The translations under genes and the position numbers were made by a program. From Candidatus Electronema halotolerans (GTDB lineage: Bacteria > Desulfobacterota > Desulfobulbia > Desulfobulbales > Desulfobulbaceae), in assembly GCA_942493095.1 (NCBI GenBank), contig OW818675.1, positions 2,130,001-2,162,000 on the forward strand: a stretch of 32,000 bases of DNA, written 5' to 3'. Positions within the stretch are counted from its first letter, which is position 1. Every line of letters starts with the position of its first letter. The notes under the pieces were generated by a model. It saw only the letters and a program-made list of their open reading frames with translations. It was not told the origin of the DNA and made no database searches. Shown here in pieces: positions 788 to 32,000 of the stretch.

Positions 788-926
788 TCTTGCTCCTCAG
801 AAAAATGCGTTGTTCATTGTTAATCATTGTAATAAATCACAATATCCTTTTTGGATAACAAAAAAAAGAAGCGATTGGGTGTAAATTCCTGATCGCTGCT
901 CAAATGGAAGCTGCCGCAGTGCGATT

Positions 927-1937
927 TCACATCAGTCCAAGCAGGAAGTTTTTCACACATTCTCCAAGAACATCAGTGTTATAACCACCTTCTTGGCATA
1001 CCAGTGTGGGTATTCCCAGGGCCTGAAACTGTTTGCCGATTGCAAAGTAATCTTCCGTGCCAAGGTTGAATCCCCCTATCGGATCCATTTCATGCGTGTC
1101 AAAACCGGCGGCAATAATAAGGTATGCAGGATTAAAAGTACGAATTTCAGAAAAAATACGATCTAATGCTGCGCTGTATTGTTCCAGTTGCGCACCTTTG
1201 GCTAAAGGCTCATTATAATTTGTTCCGACAGCCTGACCTTTGCCTCTTTCCTCGGCGTAGCCCCAAAAATACGGGTATTCATCATCAGGAGCACCATGAA
1301 CAGAGGCGGTGAATACAGATTTTATCTCATCAAAAAATTCCTGCGTTCCGTTTCCATGATGATAATCTATATCTACTATTGCCACTTTACCTTCAGGCAA
1401 CAGATACTCGGCAGCTGTAGCCACATTGTTGAAGTAGCAATAACCGCCAAACACACGGGGGCCTGCATGATGCCCGGAAGGTCTGCACAGGGCATATACC
1501 GTTTTTTCAAGGCCATCTCGAATCAATTCAGCACCTGTCAAGGCCGTTTCAGCAGAGGCCCGCGCCACTTCATAGGTTTTTCTTTTGATGGGAGTTACCG
1601 CATCAGTGCACCAAATTCCACCCCAGAGCGGTGAATCAGATTTTTTTCTAAGATGGGCGCCCTCGCCGGGAAAAAGATCAGGATAAAACTCCTCTTCATC
1701 GTTTTGCAAAGACAATGCTGTGTTCTTAATATAATCGTGATAGGGATGCAGGCGAGTGATGAATCGTTCTGGAAATGATTTTGCAGTAAGAAATTGAAAC
1801 CGCTCATCTGAACGAAGCACCTTCTTGATGGATTCAACGCGCTTTGGCGTATCTTTCACCTCGTAGGCTTCTGGTCCAAGCTGATACTTCCAATAGGGAT
1901 TATGCAGGCTGTCGTTATACTTTTCAATTACTTTCAT
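927..1937 (-). CDS. histone deacetylase-family amidohydrolase (acetylpolyamine/acetoin-utilisation type)
   Basis: Motifs PSGHHAG, GGYCYFNN, DIDYHHGNGTQ and GFDTHEMDP match the arginase/deacetylase-fold Zn site and catalytic His pair. Confidence 0.85.
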   Translation of the reverse strand: MKVIEKYNDSLHNPYWKYQLGPEAYEVKDTPKRVESIKKVLRSDERFQFLTAKSFPERFITRLHPYHDYIKNTALSLQNDEEEFYPDLFPGEGAHLRKKSDSPLWGGIWCTDAVTPIKRKTYEVARASAETALTGAELIRDGLEKTVYALCRPSGHHAGPRVFGGYCYFNNVATAAEYLLPEGKVAIVDIDYHHGNGTQEFFDEIKSVFTASVHGAPDDEYPYFWGYAEERGKGQAVGTNYNEPLAKGAQLEQYSAALDRIFSEIRTFNPAYLIIAAGFDTHEMDPIGGFNLGTEDYFAIGKQFQALGIPTLVCQEGGYNTDVLGECVKNFLLGLM

Positions 1938-4071
1938 GAATTGCTCTTCCTTTGTTTAACAGTTCGATGATTCGTTCTTGCGGAACAGGCGGGCACCAGC
2001 GCTGTCTGCGCCCATTCATTCCATTAGAGCAAAAAATGGCATTGATGACTGCCTCTTCAGTTGCTTCCACCACAGCCTCATACACCAAATTTATATGATT
2101 GTCGGAAATACATTTTAACGTTAAAAAGCTGCTGTCAGAAACGCTCTTTCGAGGCTTGCGGTTGCCTGTGCTGAAGGCAATAACAATTTCGCCACTGGTT
2201 GAAGCAGCATAAGAGCCGGTTCGGCCAAGTCCGAGAGCCGCTCGTTTGGCTACACGATTAAGCTGACTGTTGATGAGTGGTATATCAGTGGCAACAACAA
2301 CAATGATTGATCCTTCTGATACTTCCCGGCGGATATCAGGATCGAATTCCTTGTCTAATTGCTTGCCAACAACTCCTCCCTCAACAGTAAGATTGCGCAT
2401 CTTGCCAAAGTTTGACAGCACAAGCACACCTATTGTAAAGGCATTTTTTCCAGAAAGGTCCAGTATGCGTGAAGAAGTGCCTATTCCTCCGGCAAAATCA
2501 AAGCTGGTCATGCCTGCACCTGCGCCAATGGAGCCTTGCATCACTGGTCCTGATGATGCCGCCTCTATAGCCTTGATGGCATCTTGGGCCGAGCAGTATC
2601 CAACTCGTATATCGTTGAGAAAAGAATCGTCAGCTTCACCAACTACAGGCAGAACCACATCAGTTTTGGTGCCAAGATGCGGATATTTTTTCAGCATATG
2701 GTTGACAACGCCAGCATGAACCCGACCAACTGAATGCGAATTTGTAAGAAGAATAGGTGTCTCCAGCCAGCCTGTCTCAACAACTTGGGTAAGCCCAGCC
2801 ATTTCTCCAACACCATTGAGGATGAAGCCGCCAGCAGCAATCCGATTGGCATAAGCCTGGCCAGCAGGCATGATGGCGGTAACACCAGTGCGTATGGAGC
2901 TTTTTTCTGTCCCTCCGGGAATTGGAACGTCATCTTCCATCTTGGTGAAATGACCAACCCGAACACCCTTGACATCTGTGATTGCATTATGGATGCCTGG
3001 ACTCATCCGGCCAATTTGAATTCCCAGTTCTCTGGCGGCAGGCCGTGAGGTGCCTGATCTGAATCCACCTTTTTGCGGCTGCTTGATTGCAAGACCATAT
3101 CGGCGGGCGGCAGAGCGTATGATCAACCTCATGACATCTCTGAATTCAAGACCGCGTGATCTGGCAGCCGTCATAAGGGAGGCATTTGGATGCAGACTTG
3201 GCAGGGGATTAAGTTCAATAAAATATGGTTGTCCGTTTGTATTCAAGCGAATATCCACCCGGCCAAGGTCAGGGCATGACATGATGTCAAAAACTGCACG
3301 AGCCATTTTTATAACAGCTTTTTCTTCCTGTTGACTAATAGTTGCTGGACAAACGACATTGATTGCTTCTGCCCCTTTTCCCCCTTGCTTCATGTCGTAG
3401 TCATAGATATTATATTTGCCATCAATCGTATCCATGTCAAAAGTGTGTTCAACGATGTCAAGCAGCTTGCCAGGAAAGCTCTCAAGAAATGGGATGCTTA
3501 ATTCACGACCTTCTATAAATTCTTCAACCACAAGACCTGATGGATAATTTTTCAAAAGACCGTTTATTCTTTCCAGTGCCTGATCATGCGATTCAACAAC
3601 AGAATTTTGTGTAATACCTTTGCTTGATCCTTCTGAATTTGGTTTTATTATGAGCGGATATTGTAAATTATCGGGTAAATTTTTCTCCTTCTCGATAATC
3701 AACACACCTTTGGGAACGCTGATTCCGTATGATGCCAAAACAGTTTTAGCAAGATGCTTATCAAGATTAAGATGCAGCAGCGATGCATTGCCGCCGGTGA
3801 AGGGGATGCCCATCTGCTCGTACAATCCTGGGTAGAATGCCTCACGGGAACTGCCGATAGTCCCTTCTGCAAGATTAAATACAAGATCAGGCTCACTTTC
3901 AATCAGGCGTTCAATCACATCATTTGGTTTGCCTGAGACTTCAACGACTGTTACTGTGTGCTGAAGACTGCTGATGGCAGTGGATATTCTGTTAATGTCC
4001 TCTTCAGTTAAGAGTTCAGCCGTTGCTTCCGTATCATCAGTTCTAAGGTTGTAAGCTATTGTAATTCTCAT
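1924..4071 (-). CDS. fusion protein: N-terminal D-Ala-D-Ala-ligase-like ATP-grasp domain plus C-terminal DmpA/P1 (S58) aminopeptidase-like domain
   Basis: 715 aa. Residues about 1-330 look like a Ddl-type ATP-grasp (LHLNLDKHLAK..., IIKPNSEGSSKGI, RVDIRL..GQPYFIELNPLPSL). Residues about 360-715 look like DmpA/BapA (NAITDVKGVRVGH, TGVTAI, GAGAGMTSFDFAGGIGTSS). It overlaps the HDAC-like gene by 14 nt. Confidence 0.8.
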   Translation of the reverse strand: MRITIAYNLRTDDTEATAELLTEEDINRISTAISSLQHTVTVVEVSGKPNDVIERLIESEPDLVFNLAEGTIGSSREAFYPGLYEQMGIPFTGGNASLLHLNLDKHLAKTVLASYGISVPKGVLIIEKEKNLPDNLQYPLIIKPNSEGSSKGITQNSVVESHDQALERINGLLKNYPSGLVVEEFIEGRELSIPFLESFPGKLLDIVEHTFDMDTIDGKYNIYDYDMKQGGKGAEAINVVCPATISQQEEKAVIKMARAVFDIMSCPDLGRVDIRLNTNGQPYFIELNPLPSLHPNASLMTAARSRGLEFRDVMRLIIRSAARRYGLAIKQPQKGGFRSGTSRPAARELGIQIGRMSPGIHNAITDVKGVRVGHFTKMEDDVPIPGGTEKSSIRTGVTAIMPAGQAYANRIAAGGFILNGVGEMAGLTQVVETGWLETPILLTNSHSVGRVHAGVVNHMLKKYPHLGTKTDVVLPVVGEADDSFLNDIRVGYCSAQDAIKAIEAASSGPVMQGSIGAGAGMTSFDFAGGIGTSSRILDLSGKNAFTIGVLVLSNFGKMRNLTVEGGVVGKQLDKEFDPDIRREVSEGSIIVVVATDIPLINSQLNRVAKRAALGLGRTGSYAASTSGEIVIAFSTGNRKPRKSVSDSSFLTLKCISDNHINLVYEAVVEATEEAVINAIFCSNGMNGRRQRWCPPVPQERIIELLNKGRAIHESN

Positions 4072-13264: not shown

Positions 13265-14377
13265 TTATACAGCCTTTCGATATTTAGCGAATTCTTCTTG
13301 AATAATCGCTTCAACCTGCTTTATCCCGCCATGAAAAATATCAATCTGTTGCTCCTTCATTTTGTCCAAAATATTGGCAAGTACATTTTTGTCATGTATC
13401 ATCATGCTATATTCTGAAAATTTTCGATTCTCAAAAATTTCCACATTGGTGGCTTTACGGAAAATATAAAAGACTATTGTTTTTTCGATTACTTCCCTCA
13501 AAGTCTGGTCATCAATAAACGTGTACATTATAAGAACTAAATAGCGAAAAGTGATACCAAATCGTATGTATGGAATGATCCTCAGATATAGACATATCAA
13601 CAAAACATCCATAATCTGAGATACCCATGAATATAAGGCGATAAGAAATATCTGCGGTTCTGACTGCTCCTTCGCCAGCACCAAGAAATTCATTTGGGTG
13701 TTACAATGTCGCTCCAATTTCTCTCTCAGAGACATGTCTTCGCTGTCGTCTTCATTAAAGACTAACTTTTGGGATACATAGGGGAGCATTGCATTCTCGA
13801 TCTGTTCGAACGTCTCGTACTGATGGCAAAAATCATCCTGACTGGTAAACTCTTTATCGAATGAACTTGAAAGGAAATTGAGAAAAAATTTTCCAAGTAG
13901 TTCGTGACGTTCTTCCTCGTCTTTTACTGAGAGTTGCCGAATAGGCAATATAAAGAAAGTATTCTGGTAATGCGTTAAAATCTCTATCGTATCAGAAAAC
14001 ACTCGATTGAAATATTCGATTGTTTCCGTACTGTCAACCCTATCTTCTTGGCTTCTAAAAAATTGTTCTATCTTTAGAAATGGGTCGAAAAGCAAATGAT
14101 AATCGCCGAGTGATTTGAAATAAAAGTGTTCATAGTCGGATATGTTTAAATATATCGCACCGCATAACACAAAACATGAGTTAGTTTCGGTTAATTCTTC
14201 AAGCTCAAAATAAATTACGTCGAGTCGTTCTAACCAGAAGAATTTCACTTCATCTAAAAACAGTGCTATTGTCCTAAAGGTTATCCCATCCGTTCGAAAT
14301 ACGTTTTCAAAATCAGCGATTAGCTCCTGATACTCCGCTTGAAATCTTTGAATGTTCTCAGGATATTGAATAGCCAT
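13265..14377 (-). CDS. hypothetical protein (370 aa), no recognisable family
   Basis: Long uninterrupted ORF in AT-rich DNA, where random stops are frequent. It overlaps the upstream ORF by 20 nt. The C-terminal third has hydrophobic stretches (IFLIALYSWVSQIMDVLLICLYLRIIPYIRF). Confidence 0.6.
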   Translation of the reverse strand: MAIQYPENIQRFQAEYQELIADFENVFRTDGITFRTIALFLDEVKFFWLERLDVIYFELEELTETNSCFVLCGAIYLNISDYEHFYFKSLGDYHLLFDPFLKIEQFFRSQEDRVDSTETIEYFNRVFSDTIEILTHYQNTFFILPIRQLSVKDEEERHELLGKFFLNFLSSSFDKEFTSQDDFCHQYETFEQIENAMLPYVSQKLVFNEDDSEDMSLREKLERHCNTQMNFLVLAKEQSEPQIFLIALYSWVSQIMDVLLICLYLRIIPYIRFGITFRYLVLIMYTFIDDQTLREVIEKTIVFYIFRKATNVEIFENRKFSEYSMMIHDKNVLANILDKMKEQQIDIFHGGIKQVEAIIQEEFAKYRKAV

Positions 14378-15836
14378 TTTTTAGTTCCTTTGGTACGTTA
14401 TAGATGCCAGTCAATAAGGAAAGCAGTTTCTGCATTGTTTTAAAACTGTCGGCTTTTACATCTGGGAGTTCTTGATTTGAATTAATGTCTGGAATTGCAT
14501 GATATTGATGAGCAGCATTATCACAGTGCACCATAGCACTCTCTCTAACCGCCCCCCATAGACCATGAGCAAAACTGGAATCATAATCATAAAAAAGATC
14601 GAACAGTTCTTTTTCATCGGCTTCTATACTTTTTTCTCTTATTCCATGCTTGTCAAAGTACTTCAAGTCAACATCTATAAACTCTTCCCATCGAATCTCA
14701 TTAACTAACGCATCGACTATTAGAGGAATAAAATGCGCAGTGTTGTCTAAATCGGTTTCACGGGCTTTTAGTAAAATCAGTTTATATTTACTAATACCAT
14801 AGAGTTTATATTCCTCCCATATGTCGTGATTTGAGACTTCTCGTTTGAGGAGGTATTTGAGTATAATTAATATTTCAATAATAGTTCTAACTCCGTGACG
14901 ACCAAGAATACTATTACCCAGTGATTTCTCTGTTAGTTCAATAAAGATTTTTAGTGCATAAGTGATCGACCCCACAATGACATCAAACTTGTCTTCAGCA
15001 AGAGATTTTTCCTTGTTTGAGTGAATAATATATTCCAAAGTTTTTTGAAATTGTCTGATAAAATCTTTGTAGGTGTATTTATTTTGGTCAAAAACTATGC
15101 TTACAGGCTTACATGAAGTTATCATGCCAATATCTATCCAGAATTGTTTACAAAAATCGTTGTTGTTATTTTCTAAAGTCCCACTATATCCACCTTCCAT
15201 ACTTCTAATAGCTGGTCGATACTTCCTCATCTTTTCATCACTATGCTCTGTGTATGGATATTCTTTTAATGCTTCGATTGTCATCGTGAGACCTTTCGCA
15301 ACCCGGAGTTTATCACTAAATATTAAAAAACTTAACGATAAAAACCTTAGATCGGTTGTTTCATCTGATCCTGATGAGAAATATATTTCAATAGCTCTCA
15401 ATAGATATTTAATTCTACTCTCAAACCCAAATTGTGGGATATTGAAAAAATCATTAAACACTGGATATGTCAAAGGGCGATACAAGACTGTTAATGGCGA
15501 GAGAACTTTCTTGTCTATAATTGTTGAAACTATTGTAAAGAGAGTATGTTGGTCTTCATCTGAAAGCCCAAAAACCATAGACAGCCGAGGATGGGGTAAA
15601 TTATGCACTTTTTTTGATATATCCAGCAATACTCTACCGGCTTTCTCAAGCCCTTCTTCTCTACCATAATAAAGCAAAATCAGGCCTAACCAGAGATATT
15701 CTGGCATCCTTTCCTTGCCCCAAGAACTTAGAGTTAGCTGATCGCGAAGCCTATCATTGAGAGGAGTTGCTACAATTCCTTGCTTTTTATGCAAACGATG
15801 CTCACTCAAACGACTCACATCTTTTCTTCTCTTCAT
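14358..15836 (-). CDS. hypothetical protein (492 aa); C-terminal helical region faintly reminiscent of DUF5677-type proteins
   Basis: Long ORF in AT-rich DNA with no P-loop, nuclease or other catalytic motif that I can recognise. The DUF5677 resemblance (RTIIEILIILKYLLK ... YDYDSSFAHGLWGAV) is from memory and unverified. Confidence 0.6.
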   Translation of the reverse strand: MKRRKDVSRLSEHRLHKKQGIVATPLNDRLRDQLTLSSWGKERMPEYLWLGLILLYYGREEGLEKAGRVLLDISKKVHNLPHPRLSMVFGLSDEDQHTLFTIVSTIIDKKVLSPLTVLYRPLTYPVFNDFFNIPQFGFESRIKYLLRAIEIYFSSGSDETTDLRFLSLSFLIFSDKLRVAKGLTMTIEALKEYPYTEHSDEKMRKYRPAIRSMEGGYSGTLENNNNDFCKQFWIDIGMITSCKPVSIVFDQNKYTYKDFIRQFQKTLEYIIHSNKEKSLAEDKFDVIVGSITYALKIFIELTEKSLGNSILGRHGVRTIIEILIILKYLLKREVSNHDIWEEYKLYGISKYKLILLKARETDLDNTAHFIPLIVDALVNEIRWEEFIDVDLKYFDKHGIREKSIEADEKELFDLFYDYDSSFAHGLWGAVRESAMVHCDNAAHQYHAIPDINSNQELPDVKADSFKTMQKLLSLLTGIYNVPKELKNGYSIS

Positions 15837-21370: not shown

Positions 21371-21451
21371 GAACAGCAACCACTTGAAACAATGCGCTGT
21401 TCTGTGTTATAAAGCATAGTTCACTGCCGCACAGGCAGCTTACTGAAAAAA

Positions 21452-23124: not shown

Positions 23125-23173
23125 AAAATGAGCTGCCCGCCTCATTGTCCGGGCAGCCCTTCCTGAGTACAAT
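23125..23173 (+). promoter_or_regulatory. copy A of shared operator/promoter motif
   Basis: AAAATGAG-CTGCCCGC-CTCATTGTCC-N17-TACAAT. The palindrome AATGAG-N8-CTCATT overlaps a -35-like TTGTCC, and the -10-like TACAAT is at 23168-23173. Confidence 0.45.
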
Positions 23174-23214
23174 GCTCCCTCAAAATCCTGTCCGAATCCG
23201 AATCATGATTGCTC

Positions 23215-24057
23215 ATGACCGCCATTGCCTTTGCCCAGAGCCGCCCGCCCAATGCCATGCTGCTGGCAGGCAGCATCCTCTGCGTGCTGCTCCTGCTTGT
23301 CTGCCTGCTGGGCGCACGGCTGGCCCCATACGACCCGCTCGCCCTTGACCTGAGCCAGCAGCTAGCTCCGCCCTCTGCCACCCACCTCTGCGGCACCGAT
23401 CAGCTGGGCCGCTGCGTCCTGTCGCGGCTGCTCTGCGGAGCGCGGAACTCCTTAGCCTCTGCACTGGCCGCCGTGGGACTCAGCCTGAGCATCGGCCTGC
23501 CGCTCGGCTTTCTCGCCGGACTGAGCACCCGGCGCATCGACCGCCTGCTCATGGCCATCTGCGATGTGGTGCTGGCCTTCCCTTTCCTCATCCTCGCCTT
23601 GGCCCTGACCGCAGCTCTTGGCCCGTCCCTGCGCAGCCTGATCCTTGGCGCAGGACTGGCGGGCTGGGCGTGGCAGACCAAGTTCATCCGGGGCATGGCC
23701 CTTGATGCCAAGGACAAGGACTTTGTCCGCCAAGCCAAGGCAATGGGCCTGACCCGCCCTGCCCTGCTGCGCCGCTGCATCCTGCCCCAGCTCCTGCCGC
23801 CGCTCTTGGTCAGCACCTCCCTCAGCGCGGGCCGGATGATCGTGGTCATCTCCAGCCTCAGCTATCTGGGTCTGGGCATTCAGCCGCCCCAGCCGGAATG
23901 GGGCGTGATGCTGCGCGAGTCCATGCTGCATATTGCCGCTGCGCCGTGGCTGGCGATTGCTCCGGGCGCGGCAGCCAGCCTGTCAGTGCTGGCCTTCACC
24001 CTGCTCGGCGAGGGCTTGAAAGACTGGTTCCAGATACGGCCTGTTCATGCTGCTTGA
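23215..24057 (+). CDS. ABC transporter permease, NikC/DppC/OppC type
   Basis: N-terminal ...LAPYDP motif, six TM segments and an EAA-like loop (FVRQAKAMGLTRPALLRRCILPQ). The ATG at 23215 is preferred over the TTG at 23209. Confidence 0.85.
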   Translation: MTAIAFAQSRPPNAMLLAGSILCVLLLLVCLLGARLAPYDPLALDLSQQLAPPSATHLCGTDQLGRCVLSRLLCGARNSLASALAAVGLSLSIGLPLGFLAGLSTRRIDRLLMAICDVVLAFPFLILALALTAALGPSLRSLILGAGLAGWAWQTKFIRGMALDAKDKDFVRQAKAMGLTRPALLRRCILPQLLPPLLVSTSLSAGRMIVVISSLSYLGLGIQPPQPEWGVMLRESMLHIAAAPWLAIAPGAAASLSVLAFTLLGEGLKDWFQIRPVHAA

Positions 24058-24829
24058 AGTGGACAGGCTTTGCATCGGCTTGGGCAACGGGGCAAGGCGG
24101 ATTGTCGATGAGGTCAGCTTCAGGCTGGAGCGCGGCTCCTGCTTCGGCCTGCTGGGCGAGAGCGGCACTGGCAAGACCCTGCTCGCCTATGCCCTCTGCG
24201 GCCTGCTCAGTCCGCCGATGCAGGTGCTGGACGGCACAGTCCGCTTTGCTGGCGAGACGCTCCTGCCCGGCCCGCAGAGGAAGCTGGCCTGTCTGCGGGG
24301 CCGCCACATCTTCATGATGTTCCAGAGCGCGGCGGCGGCCCTCAATCCCTACCTGACCATTGGCAAACAGATTGCCGAAGCCTTGCAGACCACCCGGCGG
24401 CTCTCAGGCAGGGCGGCCTTGCGCGAGGCAGGCGCGCTGCTGGAGCGGGTCGGCCTGCGCAGCGAGCTGGTCAGTGCCCATCCCTTCCAACTGAGCGGCG
24501 GCATGCAGCAGCGGGTTCTGATCGCCATTGCCCTTGGCCTGCATCCGCAAGTCCTGATTGCCGACGAGCCAACCACCGGCCTGGACGCGCTCTCCTCCCT
24601 GCGCATTCTGGAGCTGCTCCAAAGCCTGAAGGAGGAGGGCATGGCCATCCTCTTCATTTCCCATGACCTGAAGGCCATTGCCCTGCTTGCTGACCAAGCT
24701 GGCGTGATGCGGCAAGGGCGGCTGGTCGAAACCGGCCCGCCTGCCCAGCTCCTGACTGCGCCCAAGCATCCCTGCACCCGTGAGCTGATGGAGGCGGTTC
24801 AGCGGCTGGAGGCCTGGCCGCCCGCATAG
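24047..24829 (+). CDS. ABC transporter ATP-binding protein, NikD/DppD type
   Basis: Walker A GESGTGKT, signature LSGGMQQR, Walker B LIADEPTTGLD and H-loop SHD. It overlaps the upstream permease by 11 nt. Confidence 0.9.
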   Translation: MLLEVDRLCIGLGNGARRIVDEVSFRLERGSCFGLLGESGTGKTLLAYALCGLLSPPMQVLDGTVRFAGETLLPGPQRKLACLRGRHIFMMFQSAAAALNPYLTIGKQIAEALQTTRRLSGRAALREAGALLERVGLRSELVSAHPFQLSGGMQQRVLIAIALGLHPQVLIADEPTTGLDALSSLRILELLQSLKEEGMAILFISHDLKAIALLADQAGVMRQGRLVETGPPAQLLTAPKHPCTRELMEAVQRLEAWPPA

Positions 24830-24847
24830 CCGGGCAGTATGCCCAGT

Positions 24848-24896
24848 AAAATGAGGCGGCTGCCTCATTGTCCGGGCGGCAGGAATATGGTTTATT
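24848..24896 (+). promoter_or_regulatory. copy B of shared operator/promoter motif
   Basis: AAAATGAG-GCGGCTGC-CTCATTGTCC-N17-TTTATT, preceded by the small hairpin GGGCA-GTA-TGCCC (24832-24844). Confidence 0.45.
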
Positions 24897-25046
24897 CTGG
24901 CAGTGTTCACTGCTGCTTTTTCCTTCTCTCCTTTGTTCAGCCCAGAACCATCGGGAAAGGCAGCAGCTCCGGGGCTGTTGCAGCCTCGGAGGGTTTCTCT
25001 TTGCAAGGGGGCAATCAAGCAGCCAAGACGCTGAACGCTGACCAAC

Positions 25047-26006
25047 ATGACAACAAGGCATGCCGCCATTCTCTTTCTCAAGCGTCTGGCCCGGATGGGC
25101 GGCATCCTGATCGGGGTGTCGCTGCTGACCTTTGTCCTGCTGGAGCTGGTGCCCGGCGATGCCGCAGACCTCCTCCTGAGCAGCCAGATGCAGACCGCCT
25201 CGCCTGCGCAGGCCGCCGCCCTTCGGCAGGAGCTGGCTCTGGACGCGCCCCTGCCGCTGCGCTATCTGCGCTGGCTGGGCCGGGCAGCGGTGCTGGACTT
25301 CGGCACCTCCATCCGCAGCGGCGAGCCGGTCAGCCGGGAAATACTCCGCTGCCTGCCTGTGACCATGACCCTTGCCCTGCTCACCTTCAGCTTTGCCGTG
25401 ACTGTCTCCGTGCTGGGCGGCATCATTGCGGCCCTGTTCGAGAAGCGTCTGCCGGACAGAGGCCACCGCCTGTTCGCCATTCTTGCCGTCTCCATTCCTG
25501 ACTACTGGCTGGGCCTGATGCTGCTCCTGCTCTTTGCCCTCAAGCTGGGCTGGCTGCCCGTGCTCGGCGGCAGCGGCCCTGAAGCCTTCATCCTGCCAGT
25601 GCTGGCCCTGGGCCTGTCTGCCGCTGCCGCCGAGGGCCGGGTCTTCCGGGCCAGCATCATTGCGACCTTGCAGCAGGACTGGGTGCTCTTTGCCCGCGCC
25701 AAGGGACTGCACCCGGCCAAAGTATGGCTGCGGCACGTGCTCCGCCCTGCCGCCCTGCCCATGCTCTCGGTCTGGGGCATGCAGCTAGGCCATCTGCTCG
25801 GCGGGGCCGTGGTGATTGAATCGGTCTTCTCCTTGCCCGGCTTAGGCAAGCTGGCAGCGGATGCGGTGCTCCAGCGCGACCTGCCCATGATTCAAGGCGC
25901 GGTGCTGGCCATGACCTGCTTCTTTATCCTTGCAAGCGGGGCGATGGAGAGCATCCATGCCCTGCTTGCCCCCAAGAATCGGCTGGCAATGGCTGACATG
26001 CCCTGA
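25047..26006 (+). CDS. ABC transporter permease, NikB/DppB/OppB type
   Basis: FLKRLARMGGILIGVSLLTFVLLELVPGD N-terminus and an EAA loop (FARAKGLHPAKVWLRHVLRPA) typical of DppB/NikB. Confidence 0.85.
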   Translation: MTTRHAAILFLKRLARMGGILIGVSLLTFVLLELVPGDAADLLLSSQMQTASPAQAAALRQELALDAPLPLRYLRWLGRAAVLDFGTSIRSGEPVSREILRCLPVTMTLALLTFSFAVTVSVLGGIIAALFEKRLPDRGHRLFAILAVSIPDYWLGLMLLLLFALKLGWLPVLGGSGPEAFILPVLALGLSAAAAEGRVFRASIIATLQQDWVLFARAKGLHPAKVWLRHVLRPAALPMLSVWGMQLGHLLGGAVVIESVFSLPGLGKLAADAVLQRDLPMIQGAVLAMTCFFILASGAMESIHALLAPKNRLAMADMP

Positions 26007-26030: not shown

Positions 26031-28046
26031 ATGATGAGGAACACAATCAAGCTGTCAGTGACAGCGGCGGCAGTGCTGCTGGCCGGGCCAGGCATGGCTC
26101 AGGATCAGCAGGAAACAGTGCGCACGCTCGATGAGGTGGTGGTCACGGCGACCAAGACTGAGCGGGAGCTGAAAGAGATTCCCACCAATATGGCCGTGGT
26201 CACGGCAGAGGAGGTTGAGCGGATTCAGCCGACCGACGCGATGGACCTGCTCCGCCATGTGCCGGGTCTGGTGCTGGACGGCATGGGCGGCAGCAAAGCC
26301 TCGTTCTATGCGGGCGCGCGCGGCATTCAGCCCTCCTCACGCGGCATGCTGATCATGATGGACGGGATTGAAATGAATGATCCCAGCAACTACATCTCAG
26401 CGGACAGCCTGCCTTTGGACTCCATCGAGCGGATTGAGGTGATCAAGACCCCGGCCTCAGTGCTCTACGGCCCGGCAGCGGTCGGTGGGGTGATCAACAT
26501 TATCACCAAGAAGCCGGTCAACCCGCTGGAAGGCAGTGCCAGCGTCGGCTATGGCTCCTTTGACCGCAAAGAGGCGACAGCGACAGTCAGCGGCCTGCTG
26601 GAGAATGGCTTCACTTACGGCCTCAACTACCGGGGCTTGGACACGGACGGCTATCGGGACAACAACTGGCGGCAGCAGAATGCCTTCACCCCGCGCCTCG
26701 GCTATCTCTCCGACGCAGTCGAGTTTGATGTCTTTGCCAATATTGTTGACGGCGAATACGCCTTCCCCGGCGGCCTGCCCTTGGCCACCTACAAGGATGA
26801 CCCGACCAAGTCGCTCCAGCCGGACCGCGAAGGCAATTCCACCACTGCCAACATCGGCTCGACTCTGAACTGGACCTTGGATGCGAGCAACATCCTCAAG
26901 TTCAAGACCTCCTACCGCAACAACGACTGGGAGACTGAGGACTACGGCTTCTTCTTCAAGGGCGATGACTACAATGTCTGGACAGGCGAGGCCGCCTATC
27001 AGAACCTGTCCGTGATCAACGGGATGAAGAACTCGCTCCTGCTTGGCACCGAATACCGGAGCCTGAACAACTCGCCTTCCATGTACATGGACGACCAGCA
27101 CGGCTCCATGCTCCTGAGTCAGGCCGAGATTGAGGAGCAGATCGCTGGTTTCTTTATTCAGGATGAGCTGTCGCCGGTCAGCAACCTGATGCTCAACCTT
27201 GGCGTGCGCTATGATCAGATTGACACGGACTTCAGCAACAAGCTCAAGCAGGAGGCCAGCTTTGACAACTCGCACGACAAATGGAGTCCGCGTCTCGGCC
27301 TGACCTACACAGTCGCGCCGGAGCTGTCCTTGTTCGCCAACTACTCGCAGGGCATCCGCTCGGTCAATCTGGCCCGGCCCGCCTTCCAGCTCAAGGGCAA
27401 CGTAAACCCGGAGACTGAGGAGAGCATTGAGGGCGGCATCCGGGGTCTGCTCGGCGGGGTGCTGGAATACAACGCGGCCTTGTTCCAAGTCACGACTGAG
27501 GACAAGATCATCCAGAAAGACCGCTATCTCTATGAGAACGCGGGCGAAGCCGAGTCCAAAGGCTTTGAGCTGGCTCTGAGCCGCGACCTGCCCGGCGGCT
27601 GTTATGCCTCGGCAGACTACACGTACATCAATGCTGAGTTCACCGACTACACCACTTCATCCACCACGCCGGAAGAGGCGGTCTCCTACAACGGCAAGCG
27701 CGTGCCCTTGGTGCCGGAGAACATCTTCGGCCTGACCTTGGGCTGGAAGAATCCGGTCTATGGCCACCTGAGCGGTTCGCTTCGTTACGTTGACGAGAAG
27801 TACATTGACAACGCCAACACCCTGAGCTTGGATGACTATGTGGTCGTGGATGCCAAGTATGTTGTCGGTCTGGGCGCGCTCCTGCCCGGCGCGGAGCCGT
27901 GGCAGTTCAGTCTGGCAGTCAACAACCTCTTTGATGAGACCTATGCTGAGTACGGCGAGGCGGACGGCGGCCTGTACGTGCCGGGGCCGGTCGCTTTCCC
28001 GGCAGATGGCGTGTCGGTGTTCGGCAGCATCAGCTATAAGTTCTGA
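26031..28046 (+). CDS. TonB-dependent outer-membrane receptor
   Basis: Signal peptide, TonB-box-like LDEVVVTAT, plug motifs (IPTNMAVVTAEE, DLLRHVPGL, IERIEVIKTPASVLYG) and a beta-barrel ending in terminal ...SISYKF. Confidence 0.9.
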   Translation: MMRNTIKLSVTAAAVLLAGPGMAQDQQETVRTLDEVVVTATKTERELKEIPTNMAVVTAEEVERIQPTDAMDLLRHVPGLVLDGMGGSKASFYAGARGIQPSSRGMLIMMDGIEMNDPSNYISADSLPLDSIERIEVIKTPASVLYGPAAVGGVINIITKKPVNPLEGSASVGYGSFDRKEATATVSGLLENGFTYGLNYRGLDTDGYRDNNWRQQNAFTPRLGYLSDAVEFDVFANIVDGEYAFPGGLPLATYKDDPTKSLQPDREGNSTTANIGSTLNWTLDASNILKFKTSYRNNDWETEDYGFFFKGDDYNVWTGEAAYQNLSVINGMKNSLLLGTEYRSLNNSPSMYMDDQHGSMLLSQAEIEEQIAGFFIQDELSPVSNLMLNLGVRYDQIDTDFSNKLKQEASFDNSHDKWSPRLGLTYTVAPELSLFANYSQGIRSVNLARPAFQLKGNVNPETEESIEGGIRGLLGGVLEYNAALFQVTTEDKIIQKDRYLYENAGEAESKGFELALSRDLPGGCYASADYTYINAEFTDYTTSSTTPEEAVSYNGKRVPLVPENIFGLTLGWKNPVYGHLSGSLRYVDEKYIDNANTLSLDDYVVVDAKYVVGLGALLPGAEPWQFSLAVNNLFDETYAEYGEADGGLYVPGPVAFPADGVSVFGSISYKF

Positions 28047-28096
28047 GGCGGGGGCAGTGACAGGAACCTGTCGCTCTCAGAGATAGGAGGCATGAA

Positions 28097-28251
28097 CGGT
28101 TCGTACATGCAGACATGTACGAACCGCGCAAGGAGAGATGAACGGGCCGCACATGTCTCCTTGTGCTGCCCAGTACATGGAGACATGTGCTGGCAGGCTT
28201 TGTTTGGCACGAACAACCCTCTGCAGGGGCGAAAAATTTTTCGTCCCTACG
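28097..28251. repeat. cluster of long perfect hairpins
   Basis: CGGTTCGTACATG-caga-CATGTACGAACCG (28097-28126, 13-bp stem). GCACATGTCTCC...GGAGACATGTGC (28149-28190, 12-bp stem). AGGGGCGAAAAATTTTTCGTCCCT (28225-28248, 12-bp palindrome with one G-T). Confidence 0.7.
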
Positions 28252-28274
28252 CCTGCCGCGCTGCTTGCACTCCA

Positions 28275-28412
28275 GTGTGACGAACGGTTGCACCAGAGTG
28301 CAACGGAAACTTCCACTCTCGTGCAACGCATCATAGTACTCTCGTGCGACGGTGGATACTTCGAGAGTGCAACGGCAGATACTTCTCTCGTGCAAGTTGC
28401 GGTTCCACTCCA
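28275..28412. repeat. six degenerate 23-nt tandem direct repeats
   Basis: GTGCAAC-like heads occur at 28275 (GTGTGAC), 28298, 28321, 28344 (GTGCGAC), 28367 and 28390 (GTGCAAG), spaced exactly 23 nt. Consensus is about GTGCAACGG-N7-ACTTC/CTCTC. Confidence 0.7.
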
Positions 28413-28471
28413 GTGGAAGCAGCGGGCGCACTATCCACGCCATCCTGTCCTTTCGGTCGCAGGGAGAAATC

Positions 28472-29665
28472 TCAGAGCCGGGACGAAGGAGATTCCTCCC
28501 GTTGGTCGGAATGACGGAGATATTTGTGGGCGTAGGCATAAATAAGCGCGTGACTCCACGGCCAGTATTTGTCCTGTCTCTCCAGTAGACCGTAATTAAC
28601 CAACTCATGCAACGCCTTGCGTGCCCTGTATTCATCGCCATCAAGATGAGCAGTTACCCGCTCATAGGTCAACCACGCACCTCCTCCCCACATAAAAGTA
28701 CCCCAATCGGCTTCACCCCATTTCACCGGCGTTCCCATCAATCCCAGCGCAAGTCGGGCATCATCACTGACCTGCCCTATGCTGCGCCGCAGAAGCAGGA
28801 CGGCATTCTCCTCCTCGTCCTCACCCAGCTCCTTGAACGGCTCCTGCTCCAGCCAGCGCAAGTAGTCTGCCGTATCTTCGCACATATTTCTGATATAGCA
28901 ACCGGCAATCCGCAGACCAACCGGCCAGCCGCCCAGTATCTTGCAGATGCCCTGTACGCTCTCGTCATCCGCCGCCGCACCGCTGTGCAGCCGGAAAACC
29001 TCTGCCGCAAACTGCTCCTCCAGCGGCCTGACCTGGAGCAGCTCGCCCCGCGCATCCGACCGCTTCCGGCTGGTGATCAGCACCCCGCAGCCGCCGCGCA
29101 CTTTGAGCAGAGCAGACAGGTCATCAGCCTCCTCTGCCCCGTCCAAAATCAGCAGCACCTGCTTGCCAGCCAGCAGACGGCGGGCCGCGTCCGGGCTGAC
29201 ATCCTGCTGCTGCTCGTCATAGCTGCGCACGACATGGGCAAGGGCCTCTTCAGCAGTATGCTTGCCATAAAAGGAGTAGAAGATGATGCCGTCCGGGAAG
29301 CGGTCAGGGGCTTCCTTGCCGGATGCCAGCGTCCAGACGGCCTGCGCTGCCAGAGCGGTCTTGCCCATGCCGCCCGGCCCGCAGAGCGTGACTGCCTTGC
29401 CCGGCTGGAGCAACGGCAGCAGCTCCTCCAGCACCGCATCCCTGCCCCGGAAGTGCTCGGCCAAAGGAGGCCGTTGCAGGGGAATGCCTTGGGCGGTGCG
29501 CGGGTAATGGTGGTGATGCTTTTCATAGCGGACATTGCCGGTTTGACTGAAGACGTTGCCGTTGCCCGTTACATGCTGTGTGTTGTTCTCCTGCTTGCCA
29601 ATGGCATTGTCTCCCTGAGCACTGTTCTGCTCGCCGCTGCCGGTGTTGGTGAAGGTGTCGCCCAT
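28472..29665 (-). CDS. NB-ARC / STAND P-loop NTPase
   Basis: Walker A GPGGMGKT, Walker B VLLILDGAEE, sensor-like ITSR and a GLPL-like GGWPVGL motif. The N-terminus is a Gly/Asn/Gln-rich tail with HHHH. The start at 29665 has GGAGGA upstream. The last about 30 codons read into a hairpin repeat. Confidence 0.75.
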   Translation of the reverse strand: MGDTFTNTGSGEQNSAQGDNAIGKQENNTQHVTGNGNVFSQTGNVRYEKHHHHYPRTAQGIPLQRPPLAEHFRGRDAVLEELLPLLQPGKAVTLCGPGGMGKTALAAQAVWTLASGKEAPDRFPDGIIFYSFYGKHTAEEALAHVVRSYDEQQQDVSPDAARRLLAGKQVLLILDGAEEADDLSALLKVRGGCGVLITSRKRSDARGELLQVRPLEEQFAAEVFRLHSGAAADDESVQGICKILGGWPVGLRIAGCYIRNMCEDTADYLRWLEQEPFKELGEDEEENAVLLLRRSIGQVSDDARLALGLMGTPVKWGEADWGTFMWGGGAWLTYERVTAHLDGDEYRARKALHELVNYGLLERQDKYWPWSHALIYAYAHKYLRHSDQREESPSSRL

Positions 29666-29775
29666 GTCTCCTCCATCAGGTTGAATGTGTTCAGCAATGC
29701 TCCCCAGCATACCCGAAGAGCAGCAGCTTGCGCACTGGAAATCTGCCGCCGGGCAAGGCAGGCGATATGCCCGGC

Positions 29776-29824
29776 AAAATGAGACCTCCGCCCTATTGTC
29801 CGGGCAGCATCATTCTGCTATGCT
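29776..29824 (+). promoter_or_regulatory. copy C of shared operator/promoter motif
   Basis: AAAATGAG-ACCTCCGC-CCTATTGTCC-N17-TATGCT, preceded by the hairpin CCGGGCA...TGCCCGG (29749-29774). Confidence 0.45.
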
Positions 29825-29952
29825 TGCTTGAATTGGTAAATCCAGCGGTCCCCCACGGCACTGCCGCCGCTGGCCAATAAAACAGCTTACCCCGGCGGTC
29901 TGCAATTCCGCAGGCCGCTGCCTTTAAAACCTTTCAACACAAGGTGATTGAA

Positions 29953-30150
29953 ATGGCTGTACACGCAGAAGTTCTCAAGCCCGAAGCATCCTACAACGCT
30001 GCTCCTGATGCCTGCTGCCACGGCGGCGCTTATCAGGCTGCCCCCTGCGCCTGCTGTCATGGCGGCGCATACCAAGCTGCTCCTGATGCCTGCTGTCATG
30101 GCGGTGCCTATCAGGCTGCTCCGGCTGCCTGCTGCCACGGCGGCGAGTAA
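29953..30150 (+). CDS. RiPP precursor peptide with four tandem ACCHGG cassettes
   Basis: AAGGTG lies 6 nt upstream of the ATG. Sequence: MAVHAEVLKPEASYNA-(APDACCHGGAYQA)(APCACCHGGAYQA)(APDACCHGGAYQA)(APAACCHGGE). The cassettes differ mostly by synonymous codons. It sits directly upstream of the E1-like and YcaO genes. Confidence 0.75.
   Translation: MAVHAEVLKPEASYNAAPDACCHGGAYQAAPCACCHGGAYQAAPDACCHGGAYQAAPAACCHGGE
30001..30147 (+). repeat. 3.75 x 39-nt in-frame tandem repeat (coding cassettes)
   Basis: gctcctgatgcctgctgccacggcggcgcttatcaggct, gccccctgcgcctgctgtcatggcggcgcataccaagct, gctcctgatgcctgctgtcatggcggtgcctatcaggct, gctccggctgcctgctgccacggcggcgag. Confidence 0.9.
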
Positions 30151-30152
30151 TC

Positions 30153-30207
30153 GTTTCAGGTTGACCTGAAACAAGAAACGGGAGCCTGCCTGGAGCAGGT
30201 TCCCGTT
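30153..30207 (+). promoter_or_regulatory. two stable stem-loops immediately after the precursor stop (possible processing or attenuation site)
   Basis: GTTTCAGG-ttga-CCTGAAAC (30153-30172, 8 bp). AACGGGAGCCTGC-ctgga-GCAGGTTCCCGTT (30177-30207, 13 bp with one G-T). No U-tract follows. Confidence 0.45.
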
Positions 30208-30228
30208 GCCAAAAAGAGGTGCGCAAAG

Positions 30229-30315
30229 ATGCTGGCTGGCAGCAGAAGTTCTCAAGCCCGAGTCTTTGGCTGTACCGCATCCTGCGCCTGCCACCTCTGC
30301 CCCCGCAGAGAATGA
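30229..30315 (+). CDS. possible second short Cys/His-rich precursor (28 aa) or decayed paralogue of the first
   Basis: AGAGGTG lies 7 nt upstream of the ATG. Sequence MLAGSRSSQARVFGCTASCACHLCPRRE. Nucleotide homology to the first precursor covers ATG..GCAGAAGTTCTCAAGCCCGA and GCATCCTGCGCCTGCCAC, but the leader part is shifted by 1 nt. Confidence 0.35.
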   Translation: MLAGSRSSQARVFGCTASCACHLCPRRE

Positions 30316-30376
30316 CAGGAGGCCATCTGACGATGGCCTGCACCTCTCCCCTCAGCATACTCCCCCCGAACTCATT

Positions 30377-31279
30377 ATGCAAAGCACTTTTTTGCAGCTG
30401 CGCCGCTGCCGCCGGATACCGGTGCAGGAAAATAAAGTCCTGCTCAAGTCGGCGGACAAGTCGCTGGCTCTTGCTGCGGACAATATTCATAACCTGCTGG
30501 ACAGCCTGCTGCCTCTGCTGAACGGAACCTCCACGGAAAAAGAAGTGCTGGCCGCTCTGGTGCCGGAACTGAAGGAGGATGCGGCAGAGGTGCTCCGGCT
30601 CTTGGGCAAGGAAGGCTTCTTGGAGACTGGCGCGGAACCGGCCAAGCAGCTGGCTCAGTCCCTGATTATCCTGATCAGCACTGGGCGGCTGGGTGAGACC
30701 ATGTCCCGGCATCTGCGTCAATCCGGTGCGGAGCAGGTCGAGGAGATCGATGCCGAGAGCGCGGCGGGCGGGCACCTGCCTGACTCGCTGCAACAGGCAG
30801 CTATGGTTGTAGTCTGCACCGACCTGCCAAGGCCCGACCTCTGCGAGGCAGTCAACAAGGCGGCCTTGACCCTCAAGCTGCCGTGGCTGCTGGTTCAGGC
30901 TGACGGCAGAGACGGCTGGGTTGGGCCGCTGTTCATTCCCGGCGAGACCGGCTGCTACGACTGCCTGCGCCAACGACTGCTCTCCTGTTCAGTCAGCCCG
31001 GAGATCGACCAAGCCATCCATGCTGCCGCCCTGCGCCAGCCCTTCACGGAGAGTCTGGAACTGCTGCCGCCCTTCCTTGACCTGCTGGCAGCAATGGCTG
31101 CGCTCGAAGCCATCCGCCACCTGAGCGCAGTCAGCCCGCCGCTCACTTACAAGACCCAGATTCTGCTTGACTGCATCAGCGGCATTTCCCGCCGCGATGT
31201 GCTGCATCGGATTCCCCGTTGCCCAAGCTGCTCAACCAGCAGCGAGCAGGTCTCCCCAATCCAGCCTTTCAGCGGGTGA
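30377..31279 (+). CDS. E1-like (ThiF/Ocin-ThiF-like) cyclodehydratase partner with N-terminal RRE-like leader-binding region
   Basis: The N-terminus (VQENKVLLKS...LLDSLLPLLNGTSTEKEVLAAL) resembles a PqqD-like RRE. A central degenerate Rossmann-like segment is present, plus PGETGCYDCL and RCPSC Cys pairs typical of E1-like TOMM 'C' proteins. The frame stays open back to TTG 30206. Confidence 0.7.
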   Translation: MQSTFLQLRRCRRIPVQENKVLLKSADKSLALAADNIHNLLDSLLPLLNGTSTEKEVLAALVPELKEDAAEVLRLLGKEGFLETGAEPAKQLAQSLIILISTGRLGETMSRHLRQSGAEQVEEIDAESAAGGHLPDSLQQAAMVVVCTDLPRPDLCEAVNKAALTLKLPWLLVQADGRDGWVGPLFIPGETGCYDCLRQRLLSCSVSPEIDQAIHAAALRQPFTESLELLPPFLDLLAAMAALEAIRHLSAVSPPLTYKTQILLDCISGISRRDVLHRIPRCPSCSTSSEQVSPIQPFSG

Positions 31280-31284
31280 CTGCC

Positions 31285-32000
31285 ATGATGAGCGATTTGC
31301 AGATTGCCCCGTGGCAGCGCGGGCAGGAAACGATCTTGGATGCGTTTGTCAGCTCCCGCTTGGGGCCGGTGAAGAAGCTGCAGGAGCTGACCCGCGAGCC
31401 GGACGCGCCGGATATCTTCAGCTATGTGTCCGAGGTCTGCGACCGGACTCAGTTCCATTTTCAGCAGGGCGGCAAGGTCAGCACCGGCATTGGCATCACC
31501 CGCTTTCATGCCCGCACTGCCGCCATCGGTGAATGCTTGGAACGCTACGCGGCCAGCATGTATGACCGGGACAAGGATGTCATCCTCGCCACCTGGAAGG
31601 AAATGATTGGGCAGGGGTTGCGGACTGCCCACCCGGAGGACTTCGGCCTTTACTCGGAAGCCCAGTATCAACGGCATACGTATCTCAACCGCTTCACTGA
31701 GAACACCCGCATTGGCTGGGCCAAGGCCGTCTGCCTGACTGACAGCAATGCGGAGGTCTGGCTGCCTGCCGCCTTCGTCTTTCTGCCCTATCAGTACATG
31801 GCAGGCGAGACCCAAATCTCTTCGCAAATCTCCACTGGCCTGTCCGCCGCATTTGACTTGGACACGGCTGTCATGGGCGGCATCTGTGAGATTGTGGAGC
31901 GGGAAGCGGTGATGCTGACCTGGCTCCACCGCCTGCCCTGCCCAGAGCTGCGCTTCAGCCCGGACTGCTGGTTCAGCGAAGTGTTCCAGCAACGCTTTGC
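31285..32000 (+). CDS. YcaO-domain cyclodehydratase (N-terminal 238 aa; continues beyond the window)
   Basis: My translation gives MMSDLQIAPWQRG...GGKVSTGIGITRFHARTAAIGECLERYAAS...SSQISTGLSAAFDLDTAVMGGICEIVEREAVMLTW. This matches the YcaO signature blocks (G-x-G..A...A.GE.lERY and S.GlA......A...g..E..ERDa). It is absent from the ORF track because it is open at the window end. Confidence 0.8.
   Translation, partial: MMSDLQIAPWQRGQETILDAFVSSRLGPVKKLQELTREPDAPDIFSYVSEVCDRTQFHFQQGGKVSTGIGITRFHARTAAIGECLERYAASMYDRDKDVILATWKEMIGQGLRTAHPEDFGLYSEAQYQRHTYLNRFTENTRIGWAKAVCLTDSNAEVWLPAAFVFLPYQYMAGETQISSQISTGLSAAFDLDTAVMGGICEIVEREAVMLTWLHRLPCPELRFSPDCWFSEVFQQRF

Follow-up and report, generated by a model that had tools for sequence, protein, structure and literature searches.

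Tandem CCHGG cassettes in a candidate azole metallophore precursor from Candidatus Electronema halotolerans

Linear azole-containing peptides (LAPs) such as microcin B17, plantazolicin, klebsazolicin and phazolicin are peptides made on the ribosome and then modified after translation (RiPPs), and most of those characterized are antibiotics. LAPs such as microcin B17 are released as a single long core. Here we describe a precursor gene of the same general design, located in a 32,000-nucleotide stretch of Candidatus Electronema halotolerans (contig OW818675.1, positions 2,130,001 to 2,162,000; hereafter, the window), in which a leader is followed by four tandem 39-nt cassettes. The locus shares with the LAPs a short leader with a Cys-rich core, a separate E1-like partner with a RiPP recognition element (RRE), a SagD-type YcaO protein and a putative SagB/McbC-type dehydrogenase, and fused bis-azoles would be expected from its adjacent residues. 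It differs from them in a core of two to four tandem identical cassettes with an invariant His, in the presence of a TonB-dependent receptor and NikA-like ATP-binding cassette (ABC) import genes in the same regulon, and in the lack of an immunity gene and of a curated precursor family. We favor, with some reservation, the reading that the repeat forms the core part of a precursor of the LAP kind, within the wider thiazole/oxazole-modified microcin (TOMM) group, and that the product is a new azole metallophore.

Three other described systems are close to this locus. Like the methanobactins (MbnA, MbnB/C, MbnT, MbnE, MbnM), it encodes a ribosomal peptide whose Cys residues are predicted to become nitrogen heterocycles, and the co-encoded TonB-dependent receptor, OppA/DppA-family binding protein and exporter suggest the same logic of export and re-import. 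A receptor and a major facilitator superfamily (MFS) exporter were found here, and a binding protein of the SBP_bac_5 family was found in three related loci (L003, L016 and L018) but not in the window. In contrast to the methanobactins, the enzymes are of the YcaO, E1-like and dehydrogenase types instead of MbnB (DUF692/MNIO) and MbnC, neither of which appeared in the Pfam lists of the window, L001, L003, L016 and L018; no oxazolone-thioamide would be expected, the core has several cassettes and the metal is probably another one. The opine metallophore Cnt systems for staphylopine and pseudopaline (CntA/Opp1A, CntE, CntO), which take up Ni, Co and Zn, likewise pair an MFS exporter with an ABC importer of the Nik/Opp family, to which Gram-negatives add a TonB-dependent receptor. 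Their biosynthesis is entirely different. The ligand here is a ribosomal peptide, and Pfam annotation of the window and of related loci showed no genes of the CntL/CntM type (nicotianamine-synthase-like and opine dehydrogenase). Finally, the cyanobactins (patellamide/trunkamide; PatE) have several cores per precursor, and their enzymes TruD, LynD and MusD are the closest solved homologues of both enzymes of this locus. In patellamides, nitrogens of the azoles and amides are known to coordinate Cu(II). The locus differs from the cyanobactins in its separate E1-like and YcaO proteins, 5-residue linkers and transport-gene context, and neither PatA/PatG-type proteases nor a macrocyclase were found in L001, L003, L016 and L018. 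The precursor represents an uncharacterized new family within a known RiPP class, and its probable function, that of a metallophore, is new to this class.

The features that carry this reading are the following:

29953–30150, + strand: precursor peptide gene, 65 codons and a stop (open reading frame list, translation)
29992–30147, + strand: four complete 39-nt cassettes of the form Y-x-A-A-P-x-A-C-C-H-G-G-x (Tandem Repeats Finder, codon tables, profile of 40 cassettes)
30377–31279, + strand: E1-like (ThiF-like) protein of the TOMM type that binds the leader peptide ("C protein") and has a winged helix of the RRE type at its N-terminus (Pfam ThiF, TIGR03882)
31285–32000, + strand: first 238 residues of a SagD-family YcaO cyclodehydratase (Pfam YcaO match over 31285–31998, E = 3e-35)

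The 65-codon open reading frame (ORF) at 29953–30150 (+) encodes MAVHAEVLKPEASYNAAPDACCHGGAYQAAPCACCHGGAYQAAPDACCHGGAYQAAPAACCHGGE and, split by unit, reads MAVHAEVLKPEASYNA-APDACCHGGAYQA-APCACCHGGAYQA-APDACCHGGAYQA-APAACCHGGE*. It is preceded by the ribosome-binding site AAGGTGA (29941–29947) and consists of a 13-residue leader (MAVHAEVLKPEAS), with a conserved hydrophobic/charged strand motif, and of four 13-residue cassettes (29992–30030, 30031–30069, 30070–30108 and 30109–30147), which form a Cys-rich core with nine Cys (2+3+2+2). Tandem Repeats Finder reported a period of 39 nt at 29998–30145, with 3.8 copies. An earlier reading of the letters alone (the sequence-only reading) had described four 39-nt units APxACCHGGAYQA; the repeat was confirmed, but the fourth unit has only 10 codons in that register, whereas the register Y-x-A-A-P-x-A-C-C-H-G-G-x, favored by the family comparison, makes all four units complete. 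No curated family for the precursor exists in Pfam or NCBIfam, where a sub-threshold match to Galaxin_repeat was the only one obtained, and no signal peptide was detected in it.

The cassettes were compared with each other at the codon level. All of the codon swaps that had been listed between units (gct/gcc/gca, cct/ccc/ccg, tgc/tgt, cac/cat, ggc/ggt, tat/tac and cag/caa) were found. The claim that the cassettes drift almost only at synonymous sites also held: at least 10 synonymous codon changes were counted per codon column against two changes of amino acid, each of them at the variable position x, which is also the only one to which such change had been assigned (binomial P = 2.6e-5 for the synonymous excess, with a neutral synonymous share of 0.24). 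Nei-Gojobori sums over the six unit pairs gave 29 synonymous versus 8 non-synonymous differences, with proportions of differing sites of 0.58 (synonymous, pS) and 0.05 (non-synonymous, pN). Purifying selection thus holds the cassettes constant at the protein level.

Loci with the same gene were collected by exact-protein and pattern searches. Orthologues were found on the organism's own contig (L001), in a 94%-identical relative (L004, protein P0001), in Desulfobulbaceae bacterium UBA5173 (L009), in Candidatus Electronema aureum GS (L010/L016/L017) and on a metagenomic contig (L015), and the gene was also present on four Electrothrix-like contigs (L012, L014, L018 and L019). Frameshifts or stops through the repeat would have spoken against selection on the peptide; instead, four in-frame cassettes and no stops were seen in all of these genes. 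Among the five Electronema-clade genes pS was 0.37–0.66 and pN 0.007–0.048, so that pN/pS was well below 1, and the four-cassette count and the strict 13-residue period were kept throughout the cable-bacteria clade. The remaining pattern matches to the cassette DNA (L005–L008, L011 and L013) were off-frame or low-complexity chance matches and were discarded.

Only five called homologues of the precursor were present in the protein collection (P0001–P0004 and P0169), none of them from NCBI. The distant ones have three cassettes (P0002 in L003, P0003 in L020, and P0169) or two (P0004 in L021). Since these distant homologues keep A-P-x-[AG]-C-C-H-G with almost no nucleotide identity, and the orthologues differ mostly at synonymous sites, selection acts on the peptide and not on a DNA or RNA repeat, as had been proposed. 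The cassettes inside the distant homologues likewise differ from each other chiefly at synonymous sites. A profile built from 40 cassettes showed no variation at P(-3), at the two adjacent C or at the H and G after them, and hardly any at Y/F(-7), A(-4), A(-1) and G(+4), and the motif [YF]-x-[AVIT]-[AVT]-P ahead of each cassette was the same as that at the leader-core junction, a putative recognition sequence. Position x was occupied by C 22 times, by A 13 times, by D three times and by S twice. Hence, the CxCC version noticed in cassette 2 is real but not a peculiarity of that cassette, as it is the majority state in the close relatives (x = C, C, C, A). Asp at x was found only in the window gene and L004, and is a derived state of this lineage.

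The history of the four cassettes could also be traced in part. Cassettes 2 and 4 of the window are nearest to their positional orthologues, and therefore the four-fold duplication is older than the species splits. Cassette 3 showed a similarity of 0.86 to cassette 1 of its own gene versus 0.75 to its positional orthologue, which suggests a local gene-conversion patch bearing the GAT (Asp) codon.

An antisense ORF (29887–30294, -) overlaps the precursor, with a counterpart at L016 9617–9979 (-), and in the gene calls of Ca. Electronema aureum it was taken in place of the precursor. It was ruled out as a real gene: the synonymous-only variation fits the + frame, in which the ribosome-binding site and start codon are conserved. 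The antisense call is an annotation artefact of the GC-rich repeat, and gene callers overlook such a precursor and may call the antisense ORF instead.

The proposal that every cassette serves as a functional core within a RiPP precursor is in line with the adjoining leader-binding protein, YcaO and dehydrogenase. The C protein, 100% identical to an NCBI protein of Ca. Electronema halotolerans, scored 65.6 bits on TIGR03882 (cut-off 36.9) and thus supplies the E1-like partner with a leader-binding RRE domain that is typical of LAP clusters. Its AlphaFold2 model has three N-terminal strands and three helices (predicted local distance difference test, pLDDT, 72–91), so that the modelled N-terminus has the RRE topology. 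Its closest solved structures are TruD, LynD, MusD and MccB, with ThiF also among the PDB profile matches. The YcaO gene runs beyond the window end; the full-length protein of L001 (427 aa) scored 235.7 bits on the SagD-family model TIGR03604 (cut-off 219.25), its closest solved structures being MusD, TruD and LynD. Past the window end, further genes of the operon on L001 encode an MFS transporter resembling EntS/Mef, a dehydrogenase of the SagB family and a second TonB-dependent receptor. The dehydrogenase (L001 10398–11060) had its best match to TIGR03605 at 63.6 bits, below the cut-off of 78.4; the Ca. Electronema aureum protein also stayed below it (73.4 bits), and the L003 homologue was above it (128 bits). 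The E1-like family was very narrow: 15 proteins were retrieved at E <= 1e-10 among 5.8 billion clusters, and a search of 1.84 billion representatives at E <= 1e-30 yielded no more than two 50%-identity clusters. Across the genomes and records that were searched, the close family of precursor and C protein was almost confined to cable bacteria and their allies.

Between the precursor and the enzyme genes lies the following feature:

30153–30207, + strand: two stem-loops right after the precursor stop, at 30153–30172 and 30177–30207 (folding, orthologue comparison)

The 86-nt stretch containing both stem-loops (30140–30225) folded at -40.5 kcal/mol (z = -5.4), and none of 200 shuffled sequences folded as well. 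Compensatory pair changes were observed among the orthologues, with a T-run after the stem in L010 and L015. The stem-loops are probably an attenuator/terminator or a 3' stabilizer between the precursor and the enzyme genes. An attenuator placed in this way is the usual arrangement yielding more precursor than enzyme transcript.

The import genes upstream of the precursor, and a sequence element that they share with it, are listed below:

23125–23155, + strand: copy 2 of the element, upstream of the OppC/NikC-like permease gene that starts the permease-C/ATPase unit (pattern search)
23209–26006, + strand: partial Nik/Opp/Dpp-type ABC importer (Pfam; tblastn with L003 importer proteins)
24848–24878, + strand: copy 3 of the element, with two mismatches, upstream of the OppB/NikB-like permease and TonB-dependent receptor genes (pattern search)
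26031–28046, + strand: TonB-dependent outer-membrane receptor of the siderophore-receptor subfamily (Pfam Plug and barrel; TIGR01783)
29776–29824, + strand: copy of the element upstream of the precursor, its 31-nt part at 29776–29806 (pattern search, alignment)

The receptor scored 240 bits on TIGR01783 (cut-off 223.5). The importer comprises permease C (23209–24057, OppC/NikC-like), an ATPase (24047–24829) and permease B (25047–26006, OppB/NikB-like); neither a binding-protein gene nor a second ATPase was detected in the window by Pfam or by tblastn with the L003 importer proteins, in contrast to L003, L016 and L018. In the relatives the block also includes a class-I methyltransferase and the SBP_bac_5 binding protein (the latter in L003, L016 and L018), which, both among families and in the PDB, is matched best by nickel binders of the NikA type and by CntA. 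Among the loci with enough flanking sequence, the precursor was accompanied by a TonB-dependent receptor, an MFS exporter and SBP_bac_5/ABC genes in L001, L003, L016/L017 and L018; the sequence of L014 lacks only the upstream side. The receptor adjoins the precursor in L003, L010/L016, L018 and L021, the last a 1.9-kb contig in which it lies directly upstream. Additionally, L003 has a gene for an AraC-type regulator, a kind of regulator associated with thiazoline-siderophore loci.

The 31-nt element, AAAATGAG-N5-CGCC-N2-ATTGTCCGGGCA, was found by pattern search in three copies in the window, all on the + strand, where none would be expected by chance, and it is retained upstream of the precursor in L009, L010, L015 and L016. 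In the precursor copy, the palindrome-like AAAATGAG-N8-C(T/C)(C/T)ATTG overlaps a -35 sequence, TTGTCC (29796–29801), which is followed, on inspection of the alignment, by a 17-nt spacer and the -10 sequence TATGCT (29819–29824). TTGTCC, a 17-nt spacer and TAnnnT under a long palindrome have the apparent layout of a repressor-controlled promoter. Generic sigma-70 promoter and terminator scans of 29650–30450 called nothing, and no recognizable Fur, NikR or Zur box was found by inspection and an inverted-repeat scan. A scan of the window and four loci at Rfam gathering scores gave no riboswitch or other known RNA at the locus, and a sensitive scan of 29650–30450 gave one spurious sub-threshold match.

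This transport context bears on one alternative, a conventional linear azole peptide antibiotic of the microcin B17/plantazolicin type, for which the MFS protein would provide export and self-protection while the receptor and ABC genes served unrelated uptake. The enzyme set is indeed the classical LAP trio, the adjacent Cys would give fused bis-azoles as in microcin B17, and an antibiotic role is the commonest among characterized LAPs. Nevertheless, the receptor-precursor linkage lasts across deep divergence (the window clade, L003 and L021), the precursor and the import units share their promoter/operator, McbG-like immunity and ABC exporter genes are both absent, and producers normally lack dedicated importers for their own antibiotic. 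Hence, an antibiotic is considered unlikely here.

For the metallophore reading, a pathway may be proposed whose chemistry is drawn from established knowledge of TOMM/LAP biosynthesis. The leader (AEVLKPE) would dock as a strand on the RRE, and the YcaO protein with its partner would convert Cys into thiazolines by ATP-dependent cyclodehydration, which the dehydrogenase would oxidize to thiazoles in a flavin mononucleotide-dependent step. The predicted mass change is -20.03 Da per Cys, at up to nine sites. Each C-C-H would thus become a bithiazole beside an imidazole, a nitrogen-donor metal site, and x = Cys would add one more thiazole. The MFS pump would export the product, which would bind metal outside the cell, and the complex would be brought back in by the receptor together with the NikA-like ABC system, in the manner of methanobactin and staphylopine.

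The form of the product may be either of the two that the sequence-only reading had named, several cores or one poly-chelator. The whole core of about 52 residues, after leader removal, could be one poly-chelating product with four metal sites, a sub-variant of the metallophore reading. No protease gene was found in any locus examined (L001, L003, L016 and L018), and because of this and of the precedent of long LAP cores a single four-site product gains weight; the 13-residue period and the four-cassette count, conserved across the cable-bacteria clade, point the same way. EntS-type MFS exporters, TonB-dependent receptors and NikA-like binding proteins, however, usually take ligands of about 1.5 kDa or less, the junction motif, Y-x-[AV]-[AT]-P, is repeated ahead of each cassette, and the cassette number varies from two to four between lineages, with free-form tails on the last cassette. 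The single chelator is accordingly held to be a minority possibility, though a substantial one. The other option is that the cassettes are cut out and yield several small copies of a single metallophore; on indirect grounds we lean slightly to such excision, because the motif Y-x-A-A-P recurs ahead of every cassette, the last cassette needs no tail (the tail after the last C-C-H-G(G) being free-form), the exporter and importers are of the small-molecule type and the cassette number is not fixed between lineages.

The host biology and the type of importer make nickel the foremost candidate metal. Hiralal et al. (2024; PMC11247825) described in cable bacteria an importer of the Nik/Opp/Dpp type that is related to S. 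aureus Opp1A and lies beside an undefined TonB-dependent transporter; among Desulfobulbales, they found both in cable bacteria only. They grouped the cable-bacteria binding protein with Opp1A and proposed nickel import for the nickel bis-dithiolene cofactor of the conductive fibers; no ligand is named, nor any YcaO or peptide. In our literature search no paper was found that pairs cable bacteria with YcaO or a cyclodehydratase, uses a CCHGG motif in this sense, reports an azole RiPP metallophore with a TonB receptor or mentions this peptide.

In another alternative, the peptide stays unmodified as a metallothionein-like Cys/His-rich metal buffer or chaperone, intracellular or periplasmic, or supplies vicinal Cys for a sulfur-ligated fiber nickel cofactor. 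The Cys-Cys-His-Gly-Gly repeats are obvious thiolate and imidazole ligands, the host needs much nickel for a cofactor whose biosynthesis is unknown (PMC11247825), and the narrow distribution of the family in cable bacteria and allies would suit such a role. On the other hand, the precursor lacks a signal peptide, the combination of a leader, an RRE/YcaO/dehydrogenase operon and an attenuator hairpin marks out a RiPP that is modified and exported, homologous clusters occur in the diverged loci L003, L020 and L021, and Ca. Electrothrix gigas is conductive without a linked importer (PMC11247825). An unmodified buffer is consequently regarded as very improbable.

Several observations weigh against the metallophore reading. 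Heterocycle formation, metal binding and export are all steps that we infer, and the dehydrogenase of this genome scored under the NCBIfam cut-off (63.6 vs 78.4 bits). After the dehydrogenase, where relatives have the methyltransferase and binding-protein genes, L001 has neither, and no protease that could excise the cassettes is encoded in any of the loci examined. As regards the metal, no riboswitch or recognizable Fur/NikR/Zur box links the locus to one, thiazole formation uses up the thiolates that would otherwise be obvious nickel ligands, and the same binding-protein family serves copper (MbnE) and peptides, so that the metal is not fixed by it. Moreover, the link between the flanking transport genes and the importer of PMC11247825 is one of resemblance in kind.

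Cable bacteria conduct over centimeters via fibers with a nickel cofactor, and how nickel is acquired in sulfidic sediment is an open question. A co-regulated, unannotated precursor, accompanied by enzymes for thiazole formation and by an exporter and placed next to transport genes of the kinds reported in PMC11247825, offers a concrete and testable ligand candidate. Tentatively, this might be the first metallophore of the YcaO/azole RiPP type, made in up to four copies per precursor, and the missing "nickelophore" of the cable-bacteria-specific receptor and Nik/Opp/Dpp importer supplying fiber nickel. If so, metal scavenging, so far known mainly from methanobactins, with unrelated enzymes, would be added to the azole peptide class, and the locus would be another example of a tandem multi-cassette core.

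Past the hairpins, a second trace of the leader sequence was found:

30242–30315, + strand: putative decayed second precursor copy (exact 20-nt duplicate of the leader block, then a degenerate Cys-rich stretch)

The leader-coding block GCAGAAGTTCTCAAGCCCGA occurs twice per locus, at 29965–29984 and, as an exact 20-nt match about 277 nt further on, at 30242–30261. It extends to about 30270 (20–29 nt), and the nearby CTGCCCCCGCAG, near 30303, is likewise frozen. Both copies of the block are nucleotide-invariant in five orthologues; in leader codons 5–10, none of the 6 codon columns varied versus 28 of the 41 in the cassettes (Fisher P = 0.0025). Because complete tandem second precursor genes are present in L014, L018 and L019, the 30242–30315 region is best read as a decayed second precursor, an assignment based on sequence comparison. 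In four of the five orthologues, the C-protein ORF shares its frame with a leader-like block, AEVLKPES, at 30242. A leader-enzyme fusion was nevertheless not supported, as there is a stop in L009, the residues between are not conserved, and residues 1–60 of the extended ORF had a pLDDT of about 30 in the AlphaFold2 model with no docking onto the RRE. A conserved RNA structure at the second block was likewise set aside: RNAalifold returned a structure, but nearly all pairs were invariant and hence uninformative. A small ORF with a good ribosome-binding site reads this region in another frame (30229–30315, +; MLAGSRSSQARVFGCTASCACHLCPRRE*) and is also present in L004, and the same nucleotides are read in a different frame in Ca. 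Electronema aureum (AEVLKPESLRNATSCACCLCPRR).

Some further features of the neighborhood were recorded. Between the receptor and the precursor, the window has a 430-nt stretch full of palindromes and 23-nt tandem repeats (28046–28472), followed by a gene for a STAND (signal transduction ATPase with numerous domains; NACHT/NB-ARC) nucleoside triphosphatase (28472–29710, -) with no PADLOC match; the receptor-precursor gap in L009, L010/L016 and L018 is too short for both. In the Electrothrix-like L018, a radical-SAM (S-adenosylmethionine)/SPASM protein and a second MFS transporter (891–3593) lie directly upstream of the receptor-precursor block and may represent extra tailoring or a neighboring RiPP module. 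A lone Rfam CRISPR-DR4 match just upstream of the threonine synthase gene (21419–21448, +; 36.4 bits, gathering score 35), with no array, is probably spurious. Finally, a low-GC island at 13265–15836 (-), with a GC content of 0.36–0.40 versus about 0.57 elsewhere, encodes proteins that strongly match DitB/DitA, a candidate defence pair in PADLOC, and was probably acquired horizontally.

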